A DNA stretch of 64,000 bases, taken from the sequence record PZ166176.1; one strand, written 5' to 3'. Origin of the DNA: a phage. A program made the translations under genes and the position numbers. The notes beneath the pieces were generated by a model, which ran no database searches, was not told the origin of the DNA, and saw only the letters and a list, made by a program, of their open reading frames with translations. Shown in pieces: positions 2,511 through 15,242 of this stretch. Position 1 is the stretch's first letter. Each line of letters opens with the position of its first letter.

Positions 2511-2708
2511 ATGGCAACATTGCACATAGTAGCGAAAGCAGGACAAATCAGCGTCGTGGTAAACGGTTTTACTGAGTTCAGTCATCCCCAGGATGATCAT
2601 GAAACGGTTTTATCTTTCATTGATTCACTGTTAGAAATGGGAGTAATTACAGAAGACCAGCACGCTACAAAATGCAAACGCGTTAATCAGATTGCAGGAA
2701 TAGAATAA
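2511..2708 (+). CDS. hypothetical early protein (65 aa)
   Basis: ORF with GGAG upstream of ATG. Confidence 0.55.
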   Translation: MATLHIVAKAGQISVVVNGFTEFSHPQDDHETVLSFIDSLLEMGVITEDQHATKCKRVNQIAGIE

Positions 2709-2714
2709 AAAGTA

Positions 2715-2778
2715 TTGACAACAACCAACAACCTGATAAGATGTATCACATAGGGCGGCGGAATGGTCCACCGCTCAC
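2715..2778 (+). promoter_or_regulatory. PeSL-like cassette: promoter plus 5' stem-loop
   Basis: TTGACA 2715-2720, -10 TAAGAT, then tagggcggcggaatggtccaccgc hairpin, SD, ATG at 2800. Confidence 0.7.
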
Positions 2779-2799
2779 AACAGAAGAGAGATTATAATC

Positions 2800-3072
2800 A
2801 TGGCATCATATAGCGCAACAATGATCGTAGCTGGCACCACTGGTAAACCTATGAGCGGTGGCGGATCTTTCGCAAATATCAACATTGACGGGCGTTTATC
2901 CCTGGACGCAGCGATCACCGTGGCGCGGGAAACATTTAAGAAAGAATGTAAATTCAATAAACAAGATTATCTCGGTTTTGCTATTGAAAAAACCGCGCGT
3001 TTTGTTGATTATAAAAGCCCAAAAATGGTTGATACTACACTAAAAGCGCAAGATGTAGCGTTTTTGCTTTAA
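2800..3072 (+). CDS. hypothetical early protein (90 aa)
   Basis: First ORF after cassette; SD agagag. Confidence 0.65.
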   Translation: MASYSATMIVAGTTGKPMSGGGSFANINIDGRLSLDAAITVARETFKKECKFNKQDYLGFAIEKTARFVDYKSPKMVDTTLKAQDVAFLL

Positions 3073-3075
3073 GGC

Positions 3076-3131
3076 TTGACATTAACGAATAATTTGTTAA
3101 TATGTTACATAAAGCGGGAATAGTTCCCGCT
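3076..3131 (+). promoter_or_regulatory. PeSL-like cassette
   Basis: TTGACA 3076-3081, taatat -10, hairpin gcgggaatagttcccgc 3114-3130. Confidence 0.65.
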
Positions 3132-3148
3132 ATTTGTAAGGTGGTAGA

Positions 3149-3406
3149 ATGTTTTACATCAAATTAAAAGGTCACGTGATCGCGTTCAAAGATAACGCTT
3201 TTTACAGATTAGCAAAATATGCGTTAATACATCCCCACTATGTTTATATAAGGGGGCGTGATGAAATAAATATCTTTGATCAAACAACATGCGAAAACAT
3301 CGAGATCCGCAAGGTTGGCGTACGTGATTATCGTACATCTTTCTACCCTTGCAAGGATTCAGCAAGTCTTTTCAAAGTATGCCAATTGTTGAAAAAAGGT
3401 GGTTAA
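3149..3406 (+). CDS. hypothetical early protein (85 aa)
   Basis: ORF after cassette, SD aaggtgg. Confidence 0.6.
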   Translation: MFYIKLKGHVIAFKDNAFYRLAKYALIHPHYVYIRGRDEINIFDQTTCENIEIRKVGVRDYRTSFYPCKDSASLFKVCQLLKKGG

Positions 3407-3407
3407 T

Positions 3408-3965
3408 ATGGGCCGCGAATATGTGATCCAGTCTTGGGTAAAACATGAAGCAGATGATCCGCGCATCATTCCCGATCATCTTATCGATGAATCCACGGGA
3501 TATAGCGGTGAGCAAATAGGTAACAGGTTAGCACGTAGTAACGGCAACGTAAAAGCGCGTTATGTGCGCCCTGGCTGGCTGGCAAATGGTAACGCTGATT
3601 TATCCAGTGCGGAAGATGCGAGCGACGGCGCGAAAGATAATCCTTTGTACAAAATTGATCCGGCTTTTCGTGTCCTGGATGAATACCCCAACAAGATAGC
3701 GGCGCTCGATCAGGCCCTGGAAAGTAAGCGCATCACCTGGACCGCTTACAACATGGCAAAAAACGTACTTGATGGTAAATTGATTCAAGCCGAAAGAAAA
3801 TTAGCCAAAATTGCAGCCATAGCCCAGGAGGAAGACGAGGAGACAACGGAAGAGGAAGAGTACGAAGAGATCCCGCCGTTGTTGTGTGTTGATGCTTTTC
3901 CTGATTATCAGCCGACAGAGGAAGAAAAAAGGATCGCACTAGAAAACTTTGAAAATAGTCTTTGA
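3408..3965 (+). CDS. hypothetical early protein with acidic C-terminal region
   Basis: ATG at 3408 with SD aaggtgg; the track GTG start at 3399 overlaps the SD; Glu-rich tail EEDEETTEEEEYEE. Confidence 0.6.
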   Translation: MGREYVIQSWVKHEADDPRIIPDHLIDESTGYSGEQIGNRLARSNGNVKARYVRPGWLANGNADLSSAEDASDGAKDNPLYKIDPAFRVLDEYPNKIAALDQALESKRITWTAYNMAKNVLDGKLIQAERKLAKIAAIAQEEDEETTEEEEYEEIPPLLCVDAFPDYQPTEEEKRIALENFENSL

Positions 3966-4020
3966 CATATCGCCGCCACTGGCATAATATTTACCACGTA
4001 GGGCGGCAATGGTGCCGCTC
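3962..4020 (+). promoter_or_regulatory. PeSL-like cassette
   Basis: TTGACA 3962-3967, cataat -10, hairpin gggcggcaatggtgccgctc 4001-4020. Confidence 0.7.
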
Positions 4021-4047
4021 ATAGTGAAATTATGCAAGAGGTTTACA

Positions 4048-4143
4048 ATGATTAATAAAGAAAATAGCTTGACGGTTGGAACGATTAACGCTATCATTTT
4101 CGCCGTTCCATTTTGGGTTGTAGTAGCGGCTATTATTTTCTAA
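4048..4143 (+). CDS. 31-aa hydrophobic micro-protein (predicted single transmembrane helix)
   Basis: MINKENSLTVGTINAIIFAVPFWVVVAAIIF; SD caagagg 7 nt upstream; below the track length cut-off. Confidence 0.45.
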   Translation: MINKENSLTVGTINAIIFAVPFWVVVAAIIF

Positions 4144-4153
4144 AAAAATATTC

Positions 4154-4214
4154 TTGACAACGTTTTTTAATCTGATAAGATGTATCACATAGGGCGGCGG
4201 AATACTTCCCCGCC
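4154..4214 (+). promoter_or_regulatory. PeSL-like cassette
   Basis: TTGACA 4154-4159; same promoter sequence as the 2715 copy; hairpin gggcggcggaatacttccccgcc. Confidence 0.7.
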
Positions 4215-4235
4215 AAAACAAAAAAGGGTAACACA

Positions 4236-4598
4236 ATGAGCAAGCAAATCAATACTATCATGTTTAATCTGGTATCTTTCCGCGACGATATGAAAAATTT
4301 ACCACGTGAAACGGTTGATATTCATGTTTCAGCTTATCGCGCCCTTATTGATATGTTACCGCTAAAACGTGATCAACATGCCGCTAATATGATGCTTAAC
4401 GCTATGCTTAAAAAGATGATTCAAACGGATCTCACCCTGGCATATGAGTATCAAGGGTGCTTATATGCAACTTACAACAAGGCGGTACCTGGTCTGGGAA
4501 GTACCGAAGAATTGCACGGCTTAAACCTGGATCAAAACACTTGGGATAGTATGCGCCGCGTTATGGTATGGGCCGAAAGCGGTAAAATTTACGAATAA
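4236..4598 (+). CDS. hypothetical early protein (120 aa)
   Basis: ORF after cassette. Confidence 0.65.
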   Translation: MSKQINTIMFNLVSFRDDMKNLPRETVDIHVSAYRALIDMLPLKRDQHAANMMLNAMLKKMIQTDLTLAYEYQGCLYATYNKAVPGLGSTEELHGLNLDQNTWDSMRRVMVWAESGKIYE

Positions 4599-4604
4599 AA
4601 ACGG

Positions 4605-4664
4605 TTGACACTGTTTAAACTTCTGGTATAGTTTACCACATAGGGCGGGAAGTGGTTTCCCGCC
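4605..4664 (+). promoter_or_regulatory. PeSL-like cassette
   Basis: TTGACA 4605-4610, TATAGT -10, hairpin tagggcgggaagtggtttcccgcc 4641-4664. Confidence 0.7.
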
Positions 4665-4668
4665 AACA

Positions 4669-5052
4669 ATGAAAAAGGTTATCATCATGGCTATTAATAT
4701 TAATGTTTCCGCTTATGCTACCCTGGCTGACACGGCTAAAATTGAATTATCCAGCATTGAGGTGGTGCATATTAGCGCCCGTCGCTGGTTTCAACAGTCC
4801 TACGGTAACACATATTTTTCTTTAATGGTTGACGTTGAGATCGGCGGTAAACTGATCGAGGTGGTTAACGTTCCGTTTCAATATGGTTATGGTGATCATT
4901 TTGATACCGTCGCCCTGGAAGAATTTAGCAAGGTTGTTAATATGGAAGGCAAAGAGTTTTCACGCGGCGCGTATCTTTCCCGTTTTTGCCGTGACAATGG
5001 GATCACTGTATACAGTCATGCAAGCGATGTAAAACGTAAAAAAGATTTATAA
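4669..5052 (+). CDS. hypothetical early protein (127 aa)
   Basis: ORF after cassette; an alternative ATG at 4687 has the better SD. Confidence 0.6.
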   Translation: MKKVIIMAININVSAYATLADTAKIELSSIEVVHISARRWFQQSYGNTYFSLMVDVEIGGKLIEVVNVPFQYGYGDHFDTVALEEFSKVVNMEGKEFSRGAYLSRFCRDNGITVYSHASDVKRKKDL

Positions 5053-5058
5053 AAAGCA

Positions 5059-5118
5059 TTGACAGCAGGAAGAAAAAGCGTAAAATGTTTTATATCGAGA
5101 GCGGGAATAGTTCCCGCC
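5059..5118 (+). promoter_or_regulatory. PeSL-like cassette
   Basis: TTGACA 5059-5064, taaaat -10, hairpin gcgggaatagttcccgc 5101-5117. Confidence 0.65.
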
Positions 5119-5141
5119 TCACTGAAAAAGAGAGAAAAATC

Positions 5142-5381
5142 ATGGCTAAATCTAAAATGTATAACGGTCACAAAAATAAAACTCACTGGAATGTAAGCCT
5201 TTGGATTAATAACGATGAATCATTATACCGTTTGGCCCAAGATTTTATTAACGCTAATGCTAATCGTAATGATGCGGCGCGGGATATGATGCTTTTTCTG
5301 GAACAAACTGGACAAGATAAAACGCCTGACGGTTTCAAATATAGCACTACTGCGATCCGCGCCGCGATGGTTGGAATGTAA
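5142..5381 (+). CDS. hypothetical early protein (79 aa)
   Basis: ATG 5142 with SD agagag; the track start at 5085 would read through the hairpin. Confidence 0.6.
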   Translation: MAKSKMYNGHKNKTHWNVSLWINNDESLYRLAQDFINANANRNDAARDMMLFLEQTGQDKTPDGFKYSTTAIRAAMVGM

Positions 5382-5390
5382 TAAAAACAG

Positions 5391-5450
5391 TTGACAACGT
5401 TTAAAATTAGTGTAAGATGTATCACATAGGGCGGGAAGTGGTTTCCCGCC
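5391..5450 (+). promoter_or_regulatory. PeSL-like cassette
   Basis: TTGACA 5391-5396, taagat -10, hairpin 5427-5450. Confidence 0.7.
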
Positions 5451-5472
5451 AACAACAGAGAGATTAAAGAGT

Positions 5473-5700
5473 ATGGCTATCAATATTGTTCGCGTATCCG
5501 GCACCGTTGGCACTTCCCAGGTTATTGCAGTTGTAACAAACAAAAAGATTAATGATGCATGTGAAAGCTTGAATAAGTGGGCTATTGCTAATTTTGGGGA
5601 ATATGCAAGCGTCGAGTACATCGAATCCTACCAGGTGCCAACCATCAGCCTAACCGATCTCAACGTTGATCGCCTGTTATGCCTGGATGAATTAATCTGA
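5473..5700 (+). CDS. hypothetical early protein (75 aa)
   Basis: ORF after cassette. Confidence 0.65.
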   Translation: MAINIVRVSGTVGTSQVIAVVTNKKINDACESLNKWAIANFGEYASVEYIESYQVPTISLTDLNVDRLLCLDELI

Positions 5701-5708
5701 AAAAGATT

Positions 5709-5767
5709 GTTGACACGGGAAAGAAAAAGAGTAAACTGTATTACGTAGGGCGGCAATGGTGCCGCTC
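5709..5767 (+). promoter_or_regulatory. PeSL-like cassette
   Basis: TTGACA 5709-5714, hairpin gtagggcggcaatggtgccgc. Confidence 0.7.
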
Positions 5768-5790
5768 ACAACAGAAGAGAGATTATTACG

Positions 5791-6003
5791 ATGGCTAATA
5801 TCCGCACACTGTTAAAAAATGCAAGTCAAGTTTTATTTTCAGATGACGAGTATTTCAATAAAGACATTACAGGCGTGAAGAATATCAAAGATGTAAAAAG
5901 TGTTATGGGTATATATTGCAATGTTAAACGTGTTGGAACGTTCGGTGATAAAGTATTGTACCAATCAGGTGATTACAATTTTACTTTGACGATTATTTCA
6001 TAA
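5791..6003 (+). CDS. hypothetical early protein (70 aa)
   Basis: ORF after cassette. Confidence 0.65.
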   Translation: MANIRTLLKNASQVLFSDDEYFNKDITGVKNIKDVKSVMGIYCNVKRVGTFGDKVLYQSGDYNFTLTIIS

Positions 6004-6007
6004 AACG

Positions 6008-6070
6008 CTTGCAATACTGCAAAAATAAAGTAAACTGTATTACATCAAGGCGGCGGAATGGTCCACCGCC
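6008..6070 (+). promoter_or_regulatory. PeSL-like cassette (variant -35 CTTGCA)
   Basis: hairpin aaggcggcggaatggtccaccgcc 6047-6070. Confidence 0.6.
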
Positions 6071-6094
6071 TAAGAAAGAGAAGAGGAAAATATC

Positions 6095-6262
6095 ATGATC
6101 ACTTTCGCTACCCGTGAAGCCGCTCGCAACGTTGCACGTAAAGTTAACGCCGCCAACCTGGGCGCTACTTTTAAAGCCCCGGTGAAAGATGAATCAGGCA
6201 AATGGATCTTCCCTGGTCTGCGTCACGCTGATAAGCTAGGCACTTTAAGCCTTAAAAAATAA
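6095..6262 (+). CDS. 55-aa basic small protein
   Basis: MITFATREAARNVARKVNAANLGATFKAPVKDESGKWIFPGLRHADKLGTLSLKK; SD aagagg; below the track cut-off. Confidence 0.5.
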   Translation: MITFATREAARNVARKVNAANLGATFKAPVKDESGKWIFPGLRHADKLGTLSLKK

Positions 6263-6264
6263 TC

Positions 6265-6303
6265 GTTGACTTTTCGTTATAGCGCCTTATAATGGGCGCT
6301 ATA
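6265..6303 (+). promoter_or_regulatory. promoter plus variant stem-loop
   Basis: TTGACT 6265-6270, hairpin tatagcgcc-ttataatg-ggcgctata. Confidence 0.5.
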
Positions 6304-6336
6304 GAGAAGAGAAACCACTACTAACAAGGAAACATC

Positions 6337-6558
6337 ATGATCACTTTCGCTATTGTCGCCGTTGTCGCTGGTCAAGTTTACGTAAATGAGACATTTACTA
6401 CAGAAGACAAGGCCGCAGGAGACATAACCGCCGTTTACAATGAGTGCAAGGCAGTAGAAAGGATGTTAGCGCCTTGTATGTTAATGAGTGAACGCCAGGA
6501 CGGGATAACAGTGTTTACTAACATTGAGACAGGGTACCAAATGGTAGTAACAAAATAA
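6337..6558 (+). CDS. hypothetical early protein (73 aa)
   Basis: ORF; shares N-terminal MITFA with the 6095 ORF. Confidence 0.6.
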   Translation: MITFAIVAVVAGQVYVNETFTTEDKAAGDITAVYNECKAVERMLAPCMLMSERQDGITVFTNIETGYQMVVTK

Positions 6559-6561
6559 AGC

Positions 6562-6619
6562 TTGACACGGATTTAATTTTCAGTAAACTGTTACACGTAG
6601 GGCGGGAATAGTTCCCGCT
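6562..6619 (+). promoter_or_regulatory. PeSL-like cassette
   Basis: TTGACA 6562-6567, hairpin gtagggcgggaatagttcccgc. Confidence 0.7.
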
Positions 6620-6636
6620 AAAAAGAGAGAAAGACC

Positions 6637-6990
6637 ATGAAAGCACAAAATGCAATTAAAGAGTACATCCTTGCCGCTATCGATTTTAATGATTACGGTA
6701 TTACAACCGAAAAAGAGAAGATCGCGGAATTGATGCGCCGTTTTAATTCCGAGTACTGGTACCCTGATAACCAATCACGTTTTAATTATAGTATTGTTAA
6801 AGCACTTGCATCATGGTTACAAGGTTTGCCATCAAATATCAATATCGCTTTCGAATATTGGGAAATTGATCGTTTGTTAACATCCTGGGGATACATTAAA
6901 GAGAATAGCAGCGATGATAAAATCCAACGAGAAAGGGAAAATTATTGGCTTTATATTGCAGGCGTGATCCTTGCTTGCTCTTATGAATGA
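6637..6990 (+). CDS. hypothetical early protein (117 aa)
   Basis: ORF after cassette. Confidence 0.65.
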   Translation: MKAQNAIKEYILAAIDFNDYGITTEKEKIAELMRRFNSEYWYPDNQSRFNYSIVKALASWLQGLPSNINIAFEYWEIDRLLTSWGYIKENSSDDKIQRERENYWLYIAGVILACSYE

Positions 6991-6996
6991 TAAACC

Positions 6997-7052
6997 TTGA
7001 CAATTTTACAAAACAGTTTAAATTAACAATATAGCGGCAATGGTGCCGCTCA
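6997..7052 (+). promoter_or_regulatory. PeSL-like cassette
   Basis: TTGACA 6997-7002, hairpin atagcggcaatggtgccgct. Confidence 0.65.
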
Positions 7053-7069
7053 TATGAAGAGGAAACAAA

Positions 7070-7216
7070 ATGAATACATCTAATCGCGCAGAAAAAATTC
7101 AATCTTCCAAGATCCGCAAGGCCTGGAACGAGGAAGTGATCCGCAAAGGCGACAAGCGCAATAAAACAAAGCGCGGGAAGAGTGACAAATATAATTGGAT
7201 GGATTTAGAGGATTAA
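7070..7216 (+). CDS. 48-aa lysine/arginine-rich small protein
   Basis: MNTSNRAEKIQSSKIRKAWNEEVIRKGDKRNKTKRGKSDKYNWMDLED; SD agaggaaac; followed by a terminator. Confidence 0.5.
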   Translation: MNTSNRAEKIQSSKIRKAWNEEVIRKGDKRNKTKRGKSDKYNWMDLED

Positions 7217-7223
7217 CATAACA

Positions 7224-7250
7224 AGGGCGCACCAAGCGCCCTTTCTTTTT
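7224..7250 (+). terminator. rho-independent terminator (GGGCGCACCAAGCGCCC family)
   Basis: agggcgcaccaagcgccct plus ttctttttt; the same hairpin recurs at 12701 and 13265. Confidence 0.7.
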
Positions 7251-7271
7251 ACATGTAGAGGATAAACAAAA

Positions 7272-7457
7272 ATGACTTTAAACGAGCTTAAAACAGCCTA
7301 CAGCACAACATTAAAAATAGCCGTGCGCTACCGTGACGAATACGGTTTTATTGCGCAGGGCGTGATCCTGGGCTTTTCTGACGATGGTTTGATCTATGTT
7401 GATGCACATCATAACAAGGTAAAACCTGAAAACGTCATTAGCATAAAATATCTTTAA
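7272..7457 (+). CDS. hypothetical early protein (61 aa)
   Basis: ORF with SD gaggat. Confidence 0.55.
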   Translation: MTLNELKTAYSTTLKIAVRYRDEYGFIAQGVILGFSDDGLIYVDAHHNKVKPENVISIKYL

Positions 7458-7463
7458 AAGTGG

Positions 7464-7523
7464 TTGACACCATAACTGGACCTGTTAAACTGTATTACAT
7501 CAGGCGGGGAATAGTTCTCCACC
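7464..7523 (+). promoter_or_regulatory. PeSL-like cassette (degenerate hairpin)
   Basis: TTGACA 7464-7469, hairpin caggcggggaatagttctccacc. Confidence 0.55.
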
Positions 7524-7542
7524 ATACAAAAAGGTAAATATT

Positions 7543-7749
7543 ATGATCACCGCAAAACAAGAGAAAATCATTATCGACGTTGCAGCCGTTGCCGCTATTG
7601 CTATTATTGGATCTTATTATGATACCCGTTTCCCGTCGGCTATGCATGAGGTCGCCGCCGTTGCATCAGTTGGCGTACTGTTTTACGTTGGTAAACGCTA
7701 TTTATCACCAATGATTAACAAGCTGACACCGTGGAAAAATAAAGGTTGA
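7543..7749 (+). CDS. hypothetical membrane protein (68 aa)
   Basis: Two hydrophobic stretches (AAVAAIAIIGSYY, AAVASVGVLFYVG). Confidence 0.6.
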   Translation: MITAKQEKIIIDVAAVAAIAIIGSYYDTRFPSAMHEVAAVASVGVLFYVGKRYLSPMINKLTPWKNKG

Positions 7750-7800
7750 TCCTGTTTTATATTGTGTTATAGTTATCGTGTAGGGCGGCAATGGTGCCGT
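7746..7800 (+). promoter_or_regulatory. PeSL-like cassette (variant -35 TTGATC)
   Basis: hairpin gtagggcggcaatggtgccg 7779-7800. Confidence 0.55.
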
Positions 7801-7820
7801 GCCCCTTTGAGGATGCAATC

Positions 7821-8105
7821 ATGAGTAAAGCTAACACCGTGCTAATGTTTTCCCTGATTAATGATCTCGCTTACTTGTCCAACATGACGCAGGAGGGTAA
7901 CACATTAACGGCAACATTCACCAATAAGCTTGACCGAGTGATCATCATCTCACTGAAAACAGTTAGTAAAGGCTTTTACTCGTTAGCTTATCATTGGATC
8001 ACCGATACCAATGAGACAAGCCAGGACTATAGCGCCCCTTTCCCTGAATCAATGGCACGGGAGATCATCGCCGCCGTTGTAAATGATGGTTTGTTTACTG
8101 AATAA
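7821..8105 (+). CDS. hypothetical early protein (94 aa)
   Basis: ATG 7821 with SD gaggatg; the track start at 7791 lies inside the hairpin. Confidence 0.6.
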   Translation: MSKANTVLMFSLINDLAYLSNMTQEGNTLTATFTNKLDRVIIISLKTVSKGFYSLAYHWITDTNETSQDYSAPFPESMAREIIAAVVNDGLFTE

Positions 8106-8123
8106 AATAATTTAGAAAAAGGC

Positions 8124-8180
8124 TTGCAATCATTTTGAGATAGTGTATATTTAATTCATAGGGCGGCGGGAATAGTTCCC
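8124..8180 (+). promoter_or_regulatory. PeSL-like cassette
   Basis: -35 TTGCAA, hairpin catagggcggcgggaatagttccc. Confidence 0.6.
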
Positions 8181-8203
8181 AAAGCAAACGAGAGGATTAC
8201 ACG

Positions 8204-8323
8204 ATGAGCAAGTACACAGTAGAATACACGGTAGAAAATCCGGCAGTATCCGAAGGTAAAAAGATGACATTTGCCATCAGTATAATCGCTTTCGTTGTCA
8301 CTATCTTATCAATCATGTTATAA
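8204..8323 (+). CDS. 39-aa micro-protein with C-terminal transmembrane helix
   Basis: MSKYTVEYTVENPAVSEGKKMTFAISIIAFVVTILSIML; SD agagga. Confidence 0.45.
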   Translation: MSKYTVEYTVENPAVSEGKKMTFAISIIAFVVTILSIML

Positions 8324-8333
8324 GGTGCACACC

Positions 8334-8495
8334 ATGAAAACAACAGACATTATCAAAGAGATCGCCCTTGCCGCTGGCGTTGAAGTCGAGGAAGTGATCG
8401 CGCTCAATCTTACAGAAAAAGATCTGCGCAACTATGAAGCGGAAAGCGTGAAAGCAAGCGGCGCGGTCCTGGTATATGATCCGGCTAACAAGTAA
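8334..8495 (+). CDS. hypothetical early protein (53 aa)
   Basis: ATG 8334 (MKTTDIIKEIAL...) after SD aaggtg; the track start at 8295 overlaps the upstream micro-ORF. Confidence 0.5.
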   Translation: MKTTDIIKEIALAAGVEVEEVIALNLTEKDLRNYEAESVKASGAVLVYDPANK

Positions 8496-8504
8496 GGGGA
8501 TAAC

Positions 8505-8615
8505 ATGAATCCGAAAGATATGCAAGCATGGAAAGGGTACGACGATCTAAGCGCCTTGCGCAATAAGTCAAGCCGTAACCTTAGACGGTTGGAAGCAAAG
8601 AAAAAGAAAAAATAG
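8505..8615 (+). CDS. 36-aa basic small protein
   Basis: MNPKDMQAWKGYDDLSALRNKSSRNLRRLEAKKKKK; SD aagggga. Confidence 0.4.
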   Translation: MNPKDMQAWKGYDDLSALRNKSSRNLRRLEAKKKKK

Positions 8616-8675
8616 TTTGACAAGTCCGCCTAGTCTGATAATATGTATCTTGTAGGGCGGCAATGGTGCCGCTCA
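8616..8675 (+). promoter_or_regulatory. PeSL-like cassette
   Basis: TTGACA 8616-8621, hairpin tgtagggcggcaatggtgccgctc. Confidence 0.7.
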
Positions 8676-8693
8676 CAAGAAGAGAGAAAAATC

Positions 8694-8978
8694 ATGAAAA
8701 TCACAAAAAGCCTAACTAATTATGCAGCACGTCGCGGATTATGTTTAACCGTTGAAAACTTAGGGAAAGAAGACTTTTTGTGTTTTTGGGAGCTTGAAAA
8801 TGATTGCGAGTGGATGTTTTCTTATTCTATCTGCGAAGATCAAAACGGTTGTTTGTTAACCTGGCGCGGTAATATCTATTTACCGGAAGAAATTAAAGAA
8901 GAGTTACCAGGTACGATCATGACAGAGAGACAGCTTAAGGAAATGATTAATTTTGTAGGGCAAAACATTAAAAAATAA
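8694..8978 (+). CDS. hypothetical early protein (94 aa)
   Basis: ATG 8694 with SD agagag; the track start at 8643 reads through the hairpin. Confidence 0.6.
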   Translation: MKITKSLTNYAARRGLCLTVENLGKEDFLCFWELENDCEWMFSYSICEDQNGCLLTWRGNIYLPEEIKEELPGTIMTERQLKEMINFVGQNIKK

Positions 8979-9040
8979 TTTGACAGCACGCAAACAACGT
9001 AGTAAAGTTTACCACATAGGGCGGCGGAATGGTCCACCGC
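8979..9040 (+). promoter_or_regulatory. PeSL-like cassette
   Basis: TTGACA 8979-8984, hairpin identical to the 2751 copy. Confidence 0.7.
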
Positions 9041-9063
9041 TCACAACAGAAGAGAAACAAATC

Positions 9064-9234
9064 ATGATCCCGACTATGTTTTATGTATCGCGCAAAGGTC
9101 ACAATATTTTTTGGTCTGAAGATTTAAACGAAGCTATGACGTTTGCCCGTGATCGTGTTGCTATCGGTGGCGTTAACATCACCGTAACCGATGAAAACGG
9201 CATTGAATACTATAACGGCGACGATGAAGAGTAA
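9064..9234 (+). CDS. hypothetical early protein (56 aa)
   Basis: ATG 9064 (MIPTMFYVSRKG...) with SD agagaaac. Confidence 0.55.
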   Translation: MIPTMFYVSRKGHNIFWSEDLNEAMTFARDRVAIGGVNITVTDENGIEYYNGDDEE

Positions 9235-9240
9235 TTAATG

Positions 9241-9263
9241 AGGCGGGGAGTATTCCCCGCCGT
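9241..9263 (+). other. stand-alone GC stem-loop with no promoter upstream
   Basis: gaggcggggagtattccccgccg immediately before the SD of ORF 9281. Confidence 0.5.
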
Positions 9264-9280
9264 CAATAAAGAGGTAAATC

Positions 9281-9550
9281 ATGAAAATATCATTGGACGT
9301 TGCAATCAAGGCCATCGAATCCGGTTACATCCTGGTAAAAGATGATAAGGCTAAAATAGTGCATCATGTTAACAAGGAAACAGGCGAAAGCATGATCACA
9401 TATAAAGCCGCCTATTTTCTCCAATCAGTAGCAGATCCGCGCGTACAACGCCAGGTTACGGCGGCTATTGCTAAAAAATTGTGTTCCTTGCAGGGTGCAA
9501 GTTTTAACGAGATCCCGCCGTGTTTTGAGTGGTCAAGCTTGAAAAAATAA
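9281..9550 (+). CDS. hypothetical early protein (89 aa)
   Basis: ORF with SD agaggt. Confidence 0.65.
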   Translation: MKISLDVAIKAIESGYILVKDDKAKIVHHVNKETGESMITYKAAYFLQSVADPRVQRQVTAAIAKKLCSLQGASFNEIPPCFEWSSLKK

Positions 9551-9551
9551 T

Positions 9552-9613
9552 TTGACAACAATTATAAATCGGGTAGAATGTATTTCGTAGGGCGGGGCAA
9601 TAAGGCAACGCCC
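9552..9613 (+). promoter_or_regulatory. PeSL-like cassette
   Basis: TTGACA 9552-9557, hairpin tagggcggggcaataaggcaacgccc. Confidence 0.65.
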
Positions 9614-9631
9614 ATTAATGAGGGTAGAATC

Positions 9632-9736
9632 ATGTTAGAGAAAATTTTCACGGTTGTAATAGTGGGCCTGGCGTTATCGGTTGGAGTGGTTGCAACTATG
9701 GCTAACATGATCCTATCTTCCCACGGTATCGGTTAA
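9632..9736 (+). CDS. 34-aa hydrophobic micro-protein
   Basis: MLEKIFTVVIVGLALSVGVVATMANMILSSHGIG; SD gagggtag. Confidence 0.45.
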   Translation: MLEKIFTVVIVGLALSVGVVATMANMILSSHGIG

Positions 9737-9737
9737 G

Positions 9738-9962
9738 GTGAAACAAATGATCACGAACAAAACAGGCAAAACGGAATTTTTACGCGGCTTACAAGTTGGT
9801 AAGCCTGAGATCTGGCATTGCACGAAGTCCGCGCATAATGAAATGAAAGATTTTACCGCTACTTTACAACGTGTTAAAATATCTATCACACAGAAAAAAG
9901 CCTTGTTAGTAGTAGAAAACGAGATCCCGCAAACTATTATTATTGTCGAGCGTACAGCATGA
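9738..9962 (+). CDS. hypothetical early protein (74 aa)
   Basis: ORF with SD aaggtgaaac. Confidence 0.6.
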   Translation: MKQMITNKTGKTEFLRGLQVGKPEIWHCTKSAHNEMKDFTATLQRVKISITQKKALLVVENEIPQTIIIVERTA

Positions 9963-10345
9963 AAACAGAAATCATTATTGAAATCATCAACGGCTATAAA
10001 GAAGCCTTTATTTTTGCTGAATCAGCAAGGGATCATGAAGGTAATTTTATTGATAACTTAGACGATTATGATTTTTCTCCTAGCGCAGATCAACGGATCG
10101 CCCAGGATGTAACAGCCTTTATTAATGCTAATCTTGCCGCTATCTCTGAGGCAATGAGCGACGGCGCAACAGCCAACCAGATCGGGAATGATTTACATTT
10201 TACCCGTAACGGTCACGGCGTAGGCTTTTGGGATCGCCCTGAAATATACACCACTAACACAGCCAACCGCCTAACCAATGCAGCTAAGTTTATGCCGAAC
10301 GTGTCGGCTTACATTGGTGAAGATAATTTGATTTATATTGAATAA
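9959..10345 (+). CDS. hypothetical early protein (128 aa)
   Basis: Start overlaps the upstream stop (ATGA coupling). Confidence 0.65.
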   Translation: MKTEIIIEIINGYKEAFIFAESARDHEGNFIDNLDDYDFSPSADQRIAQDVTAFINANLAAISEAMSDGATANQIGNDLHFTRNGHGVGFWDRPEIYTTNTANRLTNAAKFMPNVSAYIGEDNLIYIE

Positions 10346-10351
10346 AAAGTA

Positions 10352-10410
10352 TTGACACAGATCGCCAGTGTGCTAATATTTACCACGTAGGGCGGCAATG
10401 GTGCCGCTCC
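10352..10410 (+). promoter_or_regulatory. PeSL-like cassette
   Basis: TTGACA 10352-10357, -10 taatat, hairpin gtagggcggcaatggtgccgctc. Confidence 0.7.
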
Positions 10411-10428
10411 CCGAAAAAGGTAAACATT

Positions 10429-10620
10429 ATGAAAACCATCTCCTACCTGGAATCGAATAACATGTTTTTTGCGCCCGTTGATGAAATCATCGAAGCATTA
10501 AACAACGAGGAAGGGATCAAAGGTTTATCTTATAGCCAACTTTTAGGAATGGTTGCAGCAAATGAAGAGCTTGCTTACTATGTTGAAAATTTTGATGAAG
10601 CTGTAATCTTTACAAAATAA
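10429..10620 (+). CDS. hypothetical early protein (63 aa)
   Basis: ORF after cassette. Confidence 0.65.
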   Translation: MKTISYLESNNMFFAPVDEIIEALNNEEGIKGLSYSQLLGMVAANEELAYYVENFDEAVIFTK

Positions 10621-10622
10621 TC

Positions 10623-10680
10623 CTTGATCTAATCTCTTAGATAACTTATATTTAATGCGTAGGGCGGCAATGGTGCCGCC
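10623..10680 (+). promoter_or_regulatory. PeSL-like cassette (variant -35 CTTGAT)
   Basis: hairpin gtagggcggcaatggtgccgcc. Confidence 0.55.
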
Positions 10681-10698
10681 GATAATGAGGAAAGTAAA

Positions 10699-10998
10699 AT
10701 GGAAACTATCGCTATTATTACCGTAGAAAAACTGGTTGTTGGTGATGTATTCGCGTTAATGGTGCCTAACAGTAGCAAGCTGGGCGCTTATGAAGTGATG
10801 GATCATAAAAATGAATCATTTGGCGACGGTTGCACAATGGCGGTAAAATCTTTAAAGGATGGAATCATCCGTCAAGCTAATTGGCACAAAGGAAATCAAG
10901 TCGGATTAATATCAGCTAATTTCTTGCCAGAAGAGCAAACGTTAGACCAACTATCAGGCGGTAAGACGTTAGCCGAACTACTGGAAACAGCGATCTAA
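10699..10998 (+). CDS. hypothetical early protein (99 aa)
   Basis: ORF with SD gaggaaag. Confidence 0.65.
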   Translation: METIAIITVEKLVVGDVFALMVPNSSKLGAYEVMDHKNESFGDGCTMAVKSLKDGIIRQANWHKGNQVGLISANFLPEEQTLDQLSGGKTLAELLETAI

Positions 10999-11042
10999 TC
11001 AACAAAGGGGCGGCAACGCCCCACATCAGAAAGGAAAAGATT

Positions 11043-11279
11043 ATGAGTATTGCAACAGTATTAACCGCCGTTAAAACCGCTGAATCATCCGGCTTGCATG
11101 TTGAGCTTATAGATCAACCAGGTGGCGATCTCCTTGTCCAGGTTTACCCGCCGAAAGTAGGGGATGATCATTATTGGTGCTATTCCGATACGTTCGAACA
11201 AGTAGACACGAAAGCGATCACGGCTTTTATTTTAAAAGCTATTGAAGAAAATAATTTTCATTATAACATCAATCAATAA
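11043..11279 (+). CDS. hypothetical early protein (78 aa)
   Basis: ORF; preceded by a promoter-less hairpin ggggcggcaacgcccc. Confidence 0.6.
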   Translation: MSIATVLTAVKTAESSGLHVELIDQPGGDLLVQVYPPKVGDDHYWCYSDTFEQVDTKAITAFILKAIEENNFHYNINQ

Positions 11280-11334
11280 ACCATAAGCGCGGCGGTAACG
11301 CCCCATTAAACGCAATAGGAAGAGGCTAGAAAGC

Positions 11335-11619
11335 ATGAAAAAGATGATCGCAGTAGTTGCCCTGGTTGTTGGTATTAACGCGCCTGTAATGGCGAAAGAG
11401 TTGCCAGAATCCATCACGTTAACCGATATTAACGCAGTGAACCGGATCGGCGTTAATTATCGCCTATGCCTTGCCGCTAAAACTTTCCAGGACGGCACAA
11501 CAGAGTACTACGGATTCGAGGGTATCCGCTGCGGTGAGCTTGCACGCGACCTTAAGGAAGATCCAGACCTTGAGGCCATACCGATGACCGTAAACGGTAA
11601 AGCTTACGTAAGCCGCTAA
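11335..11619 (+). CDS. secreted small protein with predicted signal peptide (94 aa)
   Basis: N-terminus MKKMIAVVALVVGINAPVMA is signal-peptide-like; SD aggaagagg. Confidence 0.6.
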   Translation: MKKMIAVVALVVGINAPVMAKELPESITLTDINAVNRIGVNYRLCLAAKTFQDGTTEYYGFEGIRCGELARDLKEDPDLEAIPMTVNGKAYVSR

Positions 11620-11621
11620 CC

Positions 11622-11756
11622 ATGAGAAAGGTAATCATCACAATGGGGATCGTAGTAGCAACGCTGGCGCTTATCCCTTTCATGGTTGAACATGTGCTGA
11701 TTAATGTTGTCCTGGTAGTCAGTGACCTATTGGAAACGGTTGGCAACTGGTTTTAA
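11622..11756 (+). CDS. 44-aa hydrophobic micro-protein
   Basis: MRKVIITMGIVVATLALIPFMVEHVLINVVLVVSDLLETVGNWF; followed by a terminator. Confidence 0.45.
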   Translation: MRKVIITMGIVVATLALIPFMVEHVLINVVLVVSDLLETVGNWF

Positions 11757-11765
11757 GATAAATAA

Positions 11766-11793
11766 ACAGGGCTTGTTTTTGTCCTGTTTTTTG
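11766..11793 (+). terminator. rho-independent terminator
   Basis: acagggcttgtttttgtcctgt plus tttttt. Confidence 0.7.
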
Positions 11794-11932
11794 TTATACT
11801 TATTGAACGGGCGGCACCTGGGAGCAGGGGGAAGATAATCACCGGACGACCCCGCTATATATTGATAGCTAACATCTATCAAACAACAAAACATCAAAGA
11901 GATAAACTATCAAATCTTTACAATCCTACCTA

Positions 11933-11991
11933 TTGACACCGGATCACGCTTACATTATCATTTATCACGTAGGGCGGGAATGTTTCCCGCC
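11933..11991 (+). promoter_or_regulatory. PeSL-like cassette
   Basis: TTGACA 11933-11938, hairpin gtagggcgggaatgtttcccgcc. Confidence 0.7.
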
Positions 11992-12009
11992 TGATTTAGG
12001 AGTTATATC

Positions 12010-12243
12010 ATGATCGAACAAATTAAAAGCACTAAACCAAATGTTAACGGTAATGTTTCTCACTTTATCGGGGATAATGAAAGAGGTACACCGTACGCCG
12101 CCGTAACCGTTCAACCGAACGGGGATTATTGGTTTACCGTGTACGGATCTTACTCTTTTGGACGTTCGGCACATGATAAGATCTTGCAAGTGGTTAAGCC
12201 TACTGGGAAGAATATCACAGCAGAAAAATTTTATAAAAAATAG
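12010..12243 (+). CDS. hypothetical early protein (77 aa)
   Basis: ORF after cassette, SD ttaggag. Confidence 0.65.
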   Translation: MIEQIKSTKPNVNGNVSHFIGDNERGTPYAAVTVQPNGDYWFTVYGSYSFGRSAHDKILQVVKPTGKNITAEKFYKK

Positions 12244-12303
12244 CTTGCTTTATTTCTCCTGTTAACTTATAGTTATTGCGTAGGGCGAGCAATACAGCAA
12301 GCC
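12244..12303 (+). promoter_or_regulatory. PeSL-like cassette (variant)
   Basis: -35 CTTGCT, hairpin gtagggcgagcaatacagcaagccc. Confidence 0.5.
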
Positions 12304-12829: not shown

Positions 12830-13249
12830 ATGAACATTAAATCAAATAATCCAGCTTACTCCTTCGATAACGCTTTTTGTCACGGTAGCGCCGCCAAAGG
12901 CTTCGAAATCGATGGTAAATTGGTTATCGTGAACGTTGACGGGGAAGAGGTTGCAGTGTATCCGGTAAACGATGTTAAAAGCCGTTTACAATGCCGCATG
13001 GATGTTACCGCATATCAGCTTGATCCGATCCGTGTAGTTGCCCTGGTATTAGAGGAAGAGATCAAAGCAATGCATCACAGTAATAAGTTTATTGGTGACG
13101 CGCAGGATAATATGAACGTTTGCCGCCATAAAGTTAATGAAGCACTGAAAGAATGCGGTTTTAAGGATCTGATGATCAAACGTGATGAAAAATTCCGCTT
13201 TCGTAATGACCTGGCAAACCGGATCTACTCAATCTATGAAGCGTTATAA
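12830..13249 (+). CDS. hypothetical early protein (139 aa)
   Basis: ORF with SD aaaggat; terminator downstream. Confidence 0.65.
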   Translation: MNIKSNNPAYSFDNAFCHGSAAKGFEIDGKLVIVNVDGEEVAVYPVNDVKSRLQCRMDVTAYQLDPIRVVALVLEEEIKAMHHSNKFIGDAQDNMNVCRHKVNEALKECGFKDLMIKRDEKFRFRNDLANRIYSIYEAL

Positions 13250-13264
13250 TTGACAACAAAACAA

Positions 13265-13291
13265 GGGGCGCACCAAGCGCCCTTTCTTTTT
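13265..13291 (+). terminator. rho-independent terminator (GGGCGCACCAAGCGCCC family)
   Basis: gggcgcaccaagcgccc plus tttcttttt. Confidence 0.7.
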
Positions 13292-13498
13292 GCCCGAACA
13301 ATGTTGATAGCTTTCGCCTATGAAAAACCGACACAGAACAAAATTGAATAAATCGCGGTATCGAGCTAATCAACCATTAAACGAATAACCATACCTCCCA
13401 GGGTAACAGGCTGTTAGAGAGCCATTTATAGCGGTTAAAATCGATCAACAACCAACAACAAACCATCAAAAACACCCTTTTACCTCCTTTCTAGTGCA

Positions 13499-13516
13499 AT
13501 GATAACCATTATCATC
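13499..13516. promoter_or_regulatory. Fur-box-like palindrome
   Basis: aatgataaccattatcat. Confidence 0.4.
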
Positions 13517-14056
13517 TATCCATGTTTATCTATGCAATATAAGTGCATAACTATAATGTTGATAATAGTTCGCAACAACTAACTAACCAACAACCTAAAA
13601 CAATAAGCAAACTAATCATAATCAAAGGAATAATAGCAAGATGATTGATAACGACAAACAATCAAACCATGATGAATACTAAGCAAGATAACGATAACAC
13701 GACAAAACAACCAACTAACGAACAATAACAAACGAAACCATTAAAATAATAACTATTGCCATAATAGTGACTGAATGAAATCATTACAAAACGAATCATT
13801 CCCAGGATCATCATTAGCACGCTATGCCGGACACATAGCGAGCTAATAATAAGCCAACTACACCCCAACAATCATAACCATCGGTGATGGTTATTTCTTG
13901 TTACTGCGTAGCTTGCAATGATTGCAAGCGTAATGACGCTTACACTCATTGCGCTGGCTTATTATTAGCATTATATGTAATTACCAAGATCATAACATTA
14001 GCGCAATAACAATAATCATTGTAATGGTTACAATATGAAATCATTAGCATGGCAAT

Positions 14057-14212
14057 AATTATTGGGGGCAATGGGAGGATGATTATCATCATTCCGATAC
14101 ATTGCACACTATGCACATAATAGAATAAAAGTCAATAATTTTGGGGGCGAATACTATCGCGTAGCGATATGTTGAGCACTAAGAAAAGAGATAAACCTTA
14201 ATCATGGGGGCG
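14057..14212. repeat. three direct repeats of a TGGGGGC core
   Basis: attattgggggcaatggg (14057), aattttgggggcgaatac (14135), aatcatgggggcgtaaat (14198); a second direct repeat ATGTTGAGCA at 14165 and 14248. Confidence 0.5.
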
Positions 14213-14330
14213 TAAATATCCGAGGATTGCCAACGGCGATCCGGTAGGATGTTGAGCATCTTCTCTTAAACGTAAATAAAATCAGAAAATTCTTGATTTA
14301 TTATGGTTTTTATGTTAATAAATGTTTAAA

Positions 14331-14349
14331 TAATAATCATTCTCATATG
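14331..14349. promoter_or_regulatory. Fur-box-like palindrome
   Basis: taataatcattctcatatg. Confidence 0.4.
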
Positions 14350-14420
14350 AATAATAGTCTGCTTGTCATGAGCGGGATTAATTGACATTGTTCCGTCATA
14401 TGATGAAGTTGCCAAGCCAT

Positions 14421-14451
14421 TGATAAATAAGTGTTTGTGTGATTTATAATC
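14421..14451 (+). promoter_or_regulatory. sigma70-like promoter (TTGATA-N18-TATAAT)
   Basis: ttgataaataagtgtttgtgtgatttataat; candidate promoter for the block starting at 14868. Confidence 0.4.
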
Positions 14452-14507
14452 AAGTGGCCCACCTTGTCGCTATGTTGGCATGAGCCTTGCATAAGTCATT
14501 GAATACG

Positions 14508-14526
14508 AATGATAATTATTCTCATT
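14508..14526. promoter_or_regulatory. Fur-box-like palindrome
   Basis: aatgataattattctcatt, about 55 nt downstream of the candidate promoter. Confidence 0.45.
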
Positions 14527-14867
14527 CGCATGATATTTGGGAATTGTCGCTGCGTGGACCTGACGGCCCGAAAATTCGCGTTAAGCACTTCTTACGTATG
14601 CGCCATGATTTTTGCCATATCATATTGATTCTATTAGATATTCTTGCCGTGATTGCCATGAAACAGGGTGTCCCGAAATAATCTCTCCCCGTAGATATTT
14701 TGGGTTACTTTTTATACAAGAGTGGGGTGTCAAAAATAATCGGTATATATGGGATAATTGATAGGGAATACCAATGATAAATGAATTGTAATTGTCGAGG
14801 ATTGATCGTAGGATGTTGGTGATTGATGATTGCCATGAAAGATGGCTAACGATGAGAGGAGATTATC

Positions 14868-15242
14868 ATGCAAGAGAGTAAAAATGTTCCGTTGAGTAGT
14901 GCAACATTGCTTCGCTTCTATAAAGCATGGATTGCTAACTACCCTGCAATGAATCGCACAACGAGTGGCTTATGTGGTTGTCTGGTAGATTATGTAGATG
15001 ATTTTGTTGGTGAGACAACTAGAGAAGAAGATAGAAGATGGCGGGATAGTTTGTTAGACCGTTTGAAATATGAAATGAGGAAACAATTTACATGTGCAGG
15101 GCTGGACTACAATCTTCCGTTCAATGCAGATTGCATGGATTACCTTTCAGAGTGTATAAACTTGGCGTGTCATACCAACACGTTACGTCTTCAATGGGTG
15201 AAAGATCGTATTGAAGATGCAAATAATGCTTGCATTGAATAA
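14868..15242 (+). CDS. member A of a five-copy paralogous early family (GLC...PF...WVK motif)
   Basis: 124 aa; FYKAWI...GLCGCL...LPFN...RLQWVKD; paralogs at 18770, 22108, 24953, 26258. Confidence 0.7.
   Translation: MQESKNVPLSSATLLRFYKAWIANYPAMNRTTSGLCGCLVDYVDDFVGETTREEDRRWRDSLLDRLKYEMRKQFTCAGLDYNLPFNADCMDYLSECINLACHTNTLRLQWVKDRIEDANNACIE

Follow-up and report, generated by a model that had tools for sequence, protein, structure and literature searches.

A gene-free stretch of a Phapecoctavirus genome that very probably joins the two genome ends, with candidate Fur boxes and a compound palindrome in the terminal DNA

A single copy of a terminal repeat

We analysed a window of 64,000 nucleotides of phage DNA (record PZ166176.1) in which one stretch, positions 13290–14867, had been flagged as gene-free and rich in repeats. 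Judged by sequence, the source of the window is a Phapecoctavirus, that is, a phAPEC8-like myovirus of ~150 kb belonging to the Stephanstirmvirinae. In the flagged stretch the two physical ends (right and left) of a linear, terminally redundant genome very probably meet, and the window shows this junction as one collapsed (circular or concatemer) copy. The stretch contains a direct terminal repeat (DTR) of 328 or 329 bp (14255–14583) that occurs once in the window and at both ends of the virion DNA of close relatives. The initial annotation had described the stretch as separating ‘two early gene blocks’; because the window shows a collapsed junction, these blocks would be the opposite ends of the linear genome. 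While the observation made there is confirmed, the interpretation that came with it is only partly supported: the termini do map here, as it had proposed to check, with the DTR and both physical ends inside the flagged interval, and the locus therefore concerns packaging and DNA ends, but an origin of replication is not supported.

In the WPEC6 record the first 328 bp are exactly identical to the last 328 bp, and this repeat maps to window positions 14255–14582; the right end of the record corresponds to 13266–14582 and the left end to 14255–14900. The window thus holds a single repeat copy flanked on one side by right-end and on the other by left-end unique DNA, which is what a collapsed DTR looks like. 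Exact terminal repeats are also found at the record ends of Mt1B1_P17 (328 bp) and Schickermooser (329 bp). When the DTR (14255–14582) was used as a query against deposited sequences, with RefSeq duplicates excluded from the count, at least 12 deposits among the matches listed began exactly at base 1 of the query: Mt1B1_P17, BI-EHEC, Ro121lw, three NWU phages, Schickermooser, four WPEC phages and KKP 3954. These phages were isolated in at least five countries, and 7 of them match the DTR interval at two places in the record. The DTR of the relatives can be transferred to the window at 96–98% identity, and a sensitive search showed that deposited relatives often start or end within the flagged stretch.

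Termini of this kind are already known for the family. The RefSeq record of phi92 (NC_023693) annotates a left DTR at 1–343 and a right DTR at 148270–148612 (343 bp), and the order of elements in phi92 is the same as in the window: last gene, ~1.1 kb of non-coding DNA, DTR, leader of ~355 nt, first gene. For the related phage BME3, a DTR of 342 bp was determined by PhageTerm, and genomes of the Stephanstirmvirinae have been published as ending in DTRs. Two genome papers report no genome termini.

A shared motif at the repeat boundaries

Both boundaries of the DTR carry the motif GTTR^AGCA (with ^ marking the putative cut), which is kept across three genera; its extended form is GTTR^AGCA(C/T)-CTTCT..TA..CGTA. 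On the + strand the left motif, GTTG^AGCA (GTTGAGCA), occupies 14251–14258, with the cut between 14254 and 14255 (boundary sequence ATGTTG^AGCATCTTCTCTTAAACGTA), so that the left genome end starts at 14255; it agrees with the record starts and with the phi92 boundary, and is seen in the Klebsiella phages. The right motif, GTTA^AGCA (GTTAAGCA), lies on the same strand at 14580–14587 (boundary sequence CGCGTT(A)^AGCACTTCTTACGTA) and puts the right genome end at 14582 or 14583. The annotated boundaries of phi92 read TTTGTTG^AGCC and CGCGTTA^AGCACC, and two Klebsiella phages have the same motif pair 344 bp apart; altogether the motif stands at both boundaries in the window, phi92, muut, AMO3598 and the two Klebsiella phages, with a spacing of 329–344 bp. 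If the cut is at GTTR^AGCA on both sides, the difference between deposits with 328 and 329 bp vanishes. A decoy copy upstream (14169–14179) has the core in common with the two boundary motifs and lacks the downstream extension.

From established models we infer how the ends would be made. Terminase would cut concatemers at the two GTTR^AGCA motifs, and the single repeat between the cuts would be duplicated by strand-displacement synthesis, as has been proposed for T7/T3. After injection, genomes would form concatemers by recombination between the terminal repeats. The 1 kb to the left of the DTR, with its Fur-box pair, G-poor tract, compound palindrome and variable hairpin units, would act in cis as right-end DNA, and the 285 nt to the right of the DTR would be the leader of the first left-end operon.

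Candidate Fur operators in the terminal DNA

The Fur-like palindromes mentioned in the initial annotation stand out clearly from background: the region has 7 sites that agree with the 19-bp Fur consensus (GATAATGATAATCATTATC) at 14/19 or better, where 0.29 were expected, a result obtained in 0/1000 Markov simulations. The alternative form of the motif, 7-1-7 with at most one mismatch, has 5 sites in the 64 kb (1637, 1695, 13500, 14331 and 14510), all of them non-coding.

Two positions follow the last right-end gene. Box A1 (CAATGATAACCATTATCATCT; 13497–13517) scores 15/19 and 25.1 bits and is invariant in the alignment, and the degenerate box A2 (13557–13577), ~58–60 nt after A1, is better preserved in phi92 (16/19) and the Klebsiella phages (15/19). 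The offsets of the two positions from the stop of the last gene, ~245 and ~303 nt, recur in phi92, the Klebsiella phages, FBKp34 and an Avunavirus. The two other boxes are inside the DTR: D1 (AAATAATAATCATTCTCATAT; 14328–14348), ~75 nt inside the left end, which shares 14 consecutive nucleotides with the E. coli fhuA Fur box, and D2 (GAATGATAATTATTCTCATTC; 14507–14527), ~60 nt inside the right end, with conserved flanks (AAGTYATTGAAT and TGATATTTGRG). In a divergent subgroup of relatives (phiWec179, PsgM04F and an IMG/VR contig) the DTR interior is merely 50–70% identical to the window, and the conserved islands within it are exactly the two boundaries and the two Fur boxes.

For a reciprocal test, a matrix derived solely from 15 phage sites was run over E. 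coli K-12 DNA. In the 26-kb ent-fep locus the top four hits fall into the fepB/entC (twice), fepA/fes and fepD/entS intergenic regions, and in a further 49 kb of E. coli DNA the fhuA promoter box is hit 2. The promoters of fepB/entC, fepA/fes, fepD/entS and fhuA, which belong to the enterobactin and fhu systems, are controlled by Fur. By this test the phage motif is indistinguishable from bona fide host Fur operators, and the three strong boxes and the one degenerate position probably bind host Fur. The top score in the 49 kb went to AATTGAGAATCATTCTGAATT at E. coli K-12 position 189580, in the map/tff-rpsB intergenic region upstream of map/rpsB, which to our knowledge is not a recognised Fur site.

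Fur boxes at fixed offsets, two in the DTR, two beyond the final right-end gene and, in another non-coding region, four in a phased array, lead us to a tentative proposal, to which we give somewhat less than even weight: host Fur could be a built-in partner of the genome ends in rV5-related virulent coliphages (Stephanstirmvirinae and some Vequintavirinae), perhaps also in T5-like phages, with the palindrome described below as a DNA-level element of the same end-processing machinery. Fur may act at the ends as an architectural cofactor that helps to recognise or package them, it may be an iron-dependent switch that gates early events, or the boxes may be a sink, whereby replicating phage DNA would titrate Fur and turn on host iron uptake, possibly to the benefit of, for example, the phage’s iron-dependent ribonucleotide reductase. 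Our literature searches turned up no relevant account of Fur boxes, whether in these phages or in terminal repeats, and both the phage Fur boxes and the compound palindrome appear to be undescribed.

A covarying palindrome left of the repeat

The initial annotation had noticed a palindrome, GCTTGCAATGATTGCAAGC, whose corrected position is 13911. It lies within a compound palindrome of 160 nt (13810–13969) in which hairpin 1 precedes three further hairpins enclosed by an outer stem of 15 bp. In an alignment of 8 sequences from three genera the structure has 54 pairs, with 96% of cells paired, and 15 of the pairs show compensatory changes, compared with 8.3 ± 1.4 in shuffles (0/500 reaching this number) and at most 6 in slid controls. 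Folded as DNA, 13805–13975 gives −41.9 kcal/mol (z = −8.15). A covariance model of the element (R1) finds it in all relatives tested, the phi92-like and Klebsiella phages included; the match is weaker in two IMG/VR phages, where the outer stems differ again yet still pair. Among 794 cells there are 12 G.T and 16 A.C combinations, each about as rare as other mismatches, and there is thus no strand bias. That G.T and A.C are equally rare argues for selection on both strands, that is, for a DNA-level cruciform, a hairpin or protein-bound inverted repeats, not for an RNA. In the tentative proposal above, the palindrome would be a cruciform or hairpin element of the end-processing machinery.

Coding potential and other features of the stretch

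Over its full length the flagged stretch is 92–97% identical to its counterparts in more than 40 Phapecoctavirus genomes. In phAPEC8 the counterpart is 5513–7021, where the record annotates solely the terminator of the preceding gene. The earlier claim that ~1.6 kb lacks a credible open reading frame (ORF) holds: the longest ORF in 13250–14867 has 69 aa, and none is conserved among 9 aligned relatives. Pfam gave no match for the flanking genes, and PHROGs returned families of unknown function only. Across all 64 kb no Rfam family reached its gathering score, the one match on 12–16 kb being at chance level (E = 1.5); ARAGORN found no tRNA or tmRNA genes, and Tandem Repeats Finder reported nothing beyond a weak 11-nt CA repeat. 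An IMG/VR search for relatives with the protein of the upstream gene yielded 3 loci only.

The right-end side opens with an intrinsic terminator on the + strand (GGGGCGC-loop-GCGCCC and a T run; 13263–13295) that ends the last right-end gene (12830–13249; Gp30.8-like, phrog_12277). The terminator is present in all relatives, even in those with a different upstream gene. It is followed by a conserved right-end non-coding block (13290–13990); sliding identity to the divergent subgroup is 86–100% over 13277–13990, and two sub-blocks, 13259–13615 and 13810–13933, match the phi92-like phages at 69–80%. Between Fur positions A1 and A2 lies an inverted repeat, ATGCA-N7-TGCAT (13532–13548), found at the same place in phi92 and both Klebsiella phages. 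An A-rich, G-poor tract (13560–13800, + strand; A 51%, G 10%) separates the Fur pair from the palindrome; its composition is kept across three genera (G 5–10%), whereas its sequence is not.

Next to the left cut is a hypervariable spacer (13990–14254) with one or two units of the form TTTTGGGGGCGAA, a GC hairpin of changing sequence and ATGTTGAGCA; in the window the units are at ~14139–14179 and ~14202–14258. The spacer has indels and is 6–66% identical to the divergent subgroup, with 14041–14250 as the hypervariable part of the conservation profile. Two repeats reported earlier belong here, both present at slightly different positions: TGGGGGC, whose copies at 14063, 14142 and 14205 are the sole + strand copies in the 64 kb, and ATGTTGAGCA, which has only two exact copies (14169 and 14249). 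Taken whole, the hairpins at the cut do not fold better than shuffled sequence (z = −0.08), and what is suggestive is only that they recur while their sequence changes.

Within the DTR, TTGATT (14294–14299, + strand) is part of the conserved TCTTGATTT and is followed by TA 17 nt later in four lineages; the promoter scan gave no hit here, and a weak −35/−10 pair is possible on sequence grounds. The TTGATA/TATAAT promoter of the initial annotation does exist as a promoter-like site (14420–14450, + strand); its spacer, given there as N18, is N19, and the site is not conserved in the divergent subgroup. To the right of the DTR, the left-end leader (14584–14867, + strand) has two GGGTGTC-N-AAATAAT(-GGTATATAT) units at 14666–14682 and 14725–14750. 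These are the repeats reported earlier at 14666 and 14725; they occur nowhere else in the window on either strand, and they are conserved in the phi92 leader. The leader closes with the ribosome-binding site GAGAGGAG (14854–14861, + strand) ahead of the first left-end gene, whose ATG is at 14868.

The stretch also marks a switch in gene organisation, as had been noted. At least 16 promoter cassettes close to consensus, the ‘PeSL’ units of the initial annotation, lie on the + strand between 2.7 and 12.3 kb (2700–12300), each followed by a small gene, with none past 13.25 kb; Shine-Dalgarno cores are 2.6-fold denser downstream (6.4 per kb, versus 2.4 per kb upstream). The architecture of a cassette, on the + strand, is an A-rich upstream part, TTGACA-N17-TAnnnT and (G/A)TAGGGCGG, which opens a GC stem-loop. 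These cassettes mark the right-end early block. The flanks of WPEC6 map as scattered, partly inverted pieces of the window’s right-end block, which points to a misassembled deposit or to rearrangement between copies of the promoter cassette.

Objections and alternative readings

Several points weigh against the picture of a genome junction with Fur-marked ends. The termini of the window were transferred by homology from the records of relatives, and depositors have perhaps re-oriented some of these records to a reference, so that not all of them are independent determinations. Deposits disagree by 1 nt on the right boundary (328 versus 329 bp). Some records break elsewhere: ESCO5 and ESCO37 end at ~14507 of the window, REC starts at ~14329 and ESCO13 at ~13327. 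Both the cutting at GTTR^AGCA and the duplication of the repeat are proposed by analogy. Finally, in three lineages neither alignment by hand nor consensus scans revealed a conserved sigma-70 promoter over the Fur boxes; promoter-like counts are not above those of shuffles in phi92 or a Klebsiella phage, and are modestly above them in this window (22 versus 12.7 ± 3.5) and in the phi92 leader.

The breaks of ESCO5 and ESCO37 (~14507) and of vB_EcoM_REC (~14329) coincide with the two Fur boxes of the DTR and not with its edges. They could be an assembly artefact caused by the similar boxes.

Two alternatives would make the stretch a template for a gene product. The palindrome might belong to a non-coding RNA locus, expressed either as the 160-nt element or as an RNA of ~110 nt ending at the hairpin 13874–13894 and its T run. 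The covarying pairs, the terminator-like shape of that hairpin on the + strand, a promoter-like TTGCCA-17-AATCAT with a TG extension (13756–13784) and the invariance of AACTACAC, part of which is paired in the consensus fold, all speak for an RNA. We nevertheless regard it as improbable: the lack of strand bias among the wobble pairs fits pairing at the DNA level, conservation of the T run behind the hairpin breaks down in KP2025, the putative terminator lies within the span of the 15-bp outer stem, and no Rfam family matches. A cluster of fast-evolving miniproteins, which is how some automatic annotations treat the stretch, with 6–8 tiny coding sequences in the ETEC-TG, PsgM04F and WPEC6 records, is hardly credible. 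All ORFs of at least 40 aa carry a stop or frameshift in one or more of the 9 aligned relatives, the only ORFs that persist have 33–39 aa and lie within near-invariant DNA, and curated records leave the stretch without coding sequences.

The two other alternatives were raised by the initial annotation itself. If an initiator bound the repeats and palindromes and the A-rich tract melted, the stretch would be an origin of replication, which could coexist with termini; the 240-nt A-rich, G-poor tract does adjoin strongly folding palindromes, the non-coding DNA is conserved, and T7 has secondary origins near its genome ends. Such an origin is unlikely, however, given that no DnaA boxes (TTWTNCACA) occur on either strand between 13000 and 15000, with a single weak IHF-like match in the region; that the ‘iteron-like’ TGGGGGC unit is irregularly spaced, unphased and present in one or two copies among close relatives; and that the GC skew, suggested as a check, turns not at the flagged stretch but at ~31 kb, where gene orientation flips. 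The region at 1.2–1.97 kb also has the better anatomy for an origin, with 72-nt AT-rich repeats 138 nt apart and four phased boxes. Less probable still is a T5-like injection-stop or host-takeover region, in which host-factor sites near the repeat boundary would pause DNA entry. The likeness is an analogy with T5, whose region Davison describes as made of conserved repeats and palindromes; the T5-like phage EC105 has an untranslated region of ~1.6 kb (~9.6–11.2 kb) that by the T5 coordinates of the Davison preprint should straddle the long-repeat boundary, and this region has an array of the same Fur-box-like motif together with DnaA boxes. The repeat in our window, in contrast, is 328 bp long and gene-free, and so provides no first-step gene set, and the DnaA box pairs are absent. 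Moreover, we know of no report of two-step injection in this phage family. A junction of genome ends stays our preferred account of the stretch.

The second ORF-free stretch of the window, 1200–1970, lies 12.6 kb to the left of the DTR. It contains 72-nt AT-rich direct repeats 138 nt apart (1384–1455 and 1522–1593) and four tandem Fur boxes with an exact spacing of 29 nt (1605, 1634, 1663 and 1692; 19.5–33 bits), and by its sequence it looks more origin-like than the flagged region. Distant IMG/VR phages (L033, L036 and L037) have the same Fur arrays at the corresponding place. The GC-rich non-coding segment at 1693–1936 has 70–77% nucleotide identity among 335 matching phage records, in most of which it is unannotated; these include Vequintavirinae and phages of Cronobacter, Klebsiella, Erwinia and Salmonella. 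Neither strand of 1712–1972 gives an RNA fold signal (z ~0), and there is no Rfam match.

In EC105 the Fur-box-like array occupies 9851–10016 of the region 9570–11192, with scores of up to 33 bits, and the same region has two TGTGGATAA DnaA boxes and a LexA-box-like CTGTATATTTATACAG. A Fur reading of the T5 repeats is absent from the Davison preprint (bioRxiv 10.1101/866236).

Implications

For annotation, the stretch should be labelled as a genome terminus with a DTR, not as an origin or as hypothetical miniproteins, and 14255 is the position at which assemblies of these broad-host-range, therapy-relevant coliphages should be opened. Conserved across genera in the terminal DNA are two cut motifs, Fur boxes resembling host operators and a covarying palindrome. 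If Fur does bind, the iron status of the host would be linked to end recognition, to early events or to derepression of the Fur regulon, and this link would extend to virulent enterobacterial phages of several families.

Comparison with known systems

The closest known system is the annotated terminus of phi92 (Justusliebigvirus), with which the window shares both homology and synteny: a Gp30.8-like last gene, the terminator, the Fur pair at +245/+303, the G-poor tract, the compound palindrome, the cut GTTG^AGC, a DTR with two Fur boxes, the cut GTTA^AGCA and a leader with GGGTGTG..AAATAA units. The phi92 DTR differs in its length (343 bp, compared with 328/329 bp here) and its interior cannot be aligned by blastn; furthermore, phi92 has no G5CG-hairpin unit directly at its cut, and hairpin 4 of its palindrome has an extra inserted hairpin.

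By mechanism, the concatemer junction of T7/T3 would be the nearest model. It has a short exact terminal repeat, pac signals and, to the left of the repeat, a hairpin-forming inverted repeat. The likeness to our stretch lies in the short, non-coding, exact DTR, the flanking short repeats, the palindrome on the right-end side and a repeat that presumably must be duplicated during packaging. There is no sequence similarity, however, and the stretch has host Fur boxes and no phage RNA polymerase promoters, in a myovirus of 150 kb.

By anatomy, the nearest analogue is the untranslated ‘Repeat Region 3’ of T5, an injection stop signal at the inner edge of a 10-kb terminal repeat (Davison, bioRxiv 10.1101/866236). 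Both systems have a conserved untranslated region of 1.2–1.7 kb at a repeat boundary, with direct repeats, palindromes and boxes for host factors, and the T5-like EC105 has its Fur-box-like array (24–33 bits with the phage-derived matrix). The T5 repeat, in contrast, is ~10 kb long and encodes the pre-early genes, and the paired DnaA boxes in inverted repeats that define the T5 region are absent here.

The cos site of lambda, with its nicking site cosN and a cosB that includes an IHF site, offers a model for Fur at the ends, in that a terminase cut is flanked by the site of a host DNA-bending protein; lambda differs in having cohesive ends without a terminal repeat, and its host factor is IHF, not Fur. 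The Fur boxes of E. coli, for their part, have the same 7-1-7/19-bp motif, their promoters are recovered by the phage matrix, and fhuA shares its run of 14 consecutive bases with D1. Unlike these host operators, the phage boxes do not lie over a recognisable promoter: they are placed in the terminal DNA of the phage, at offsets that are conserved across genera.

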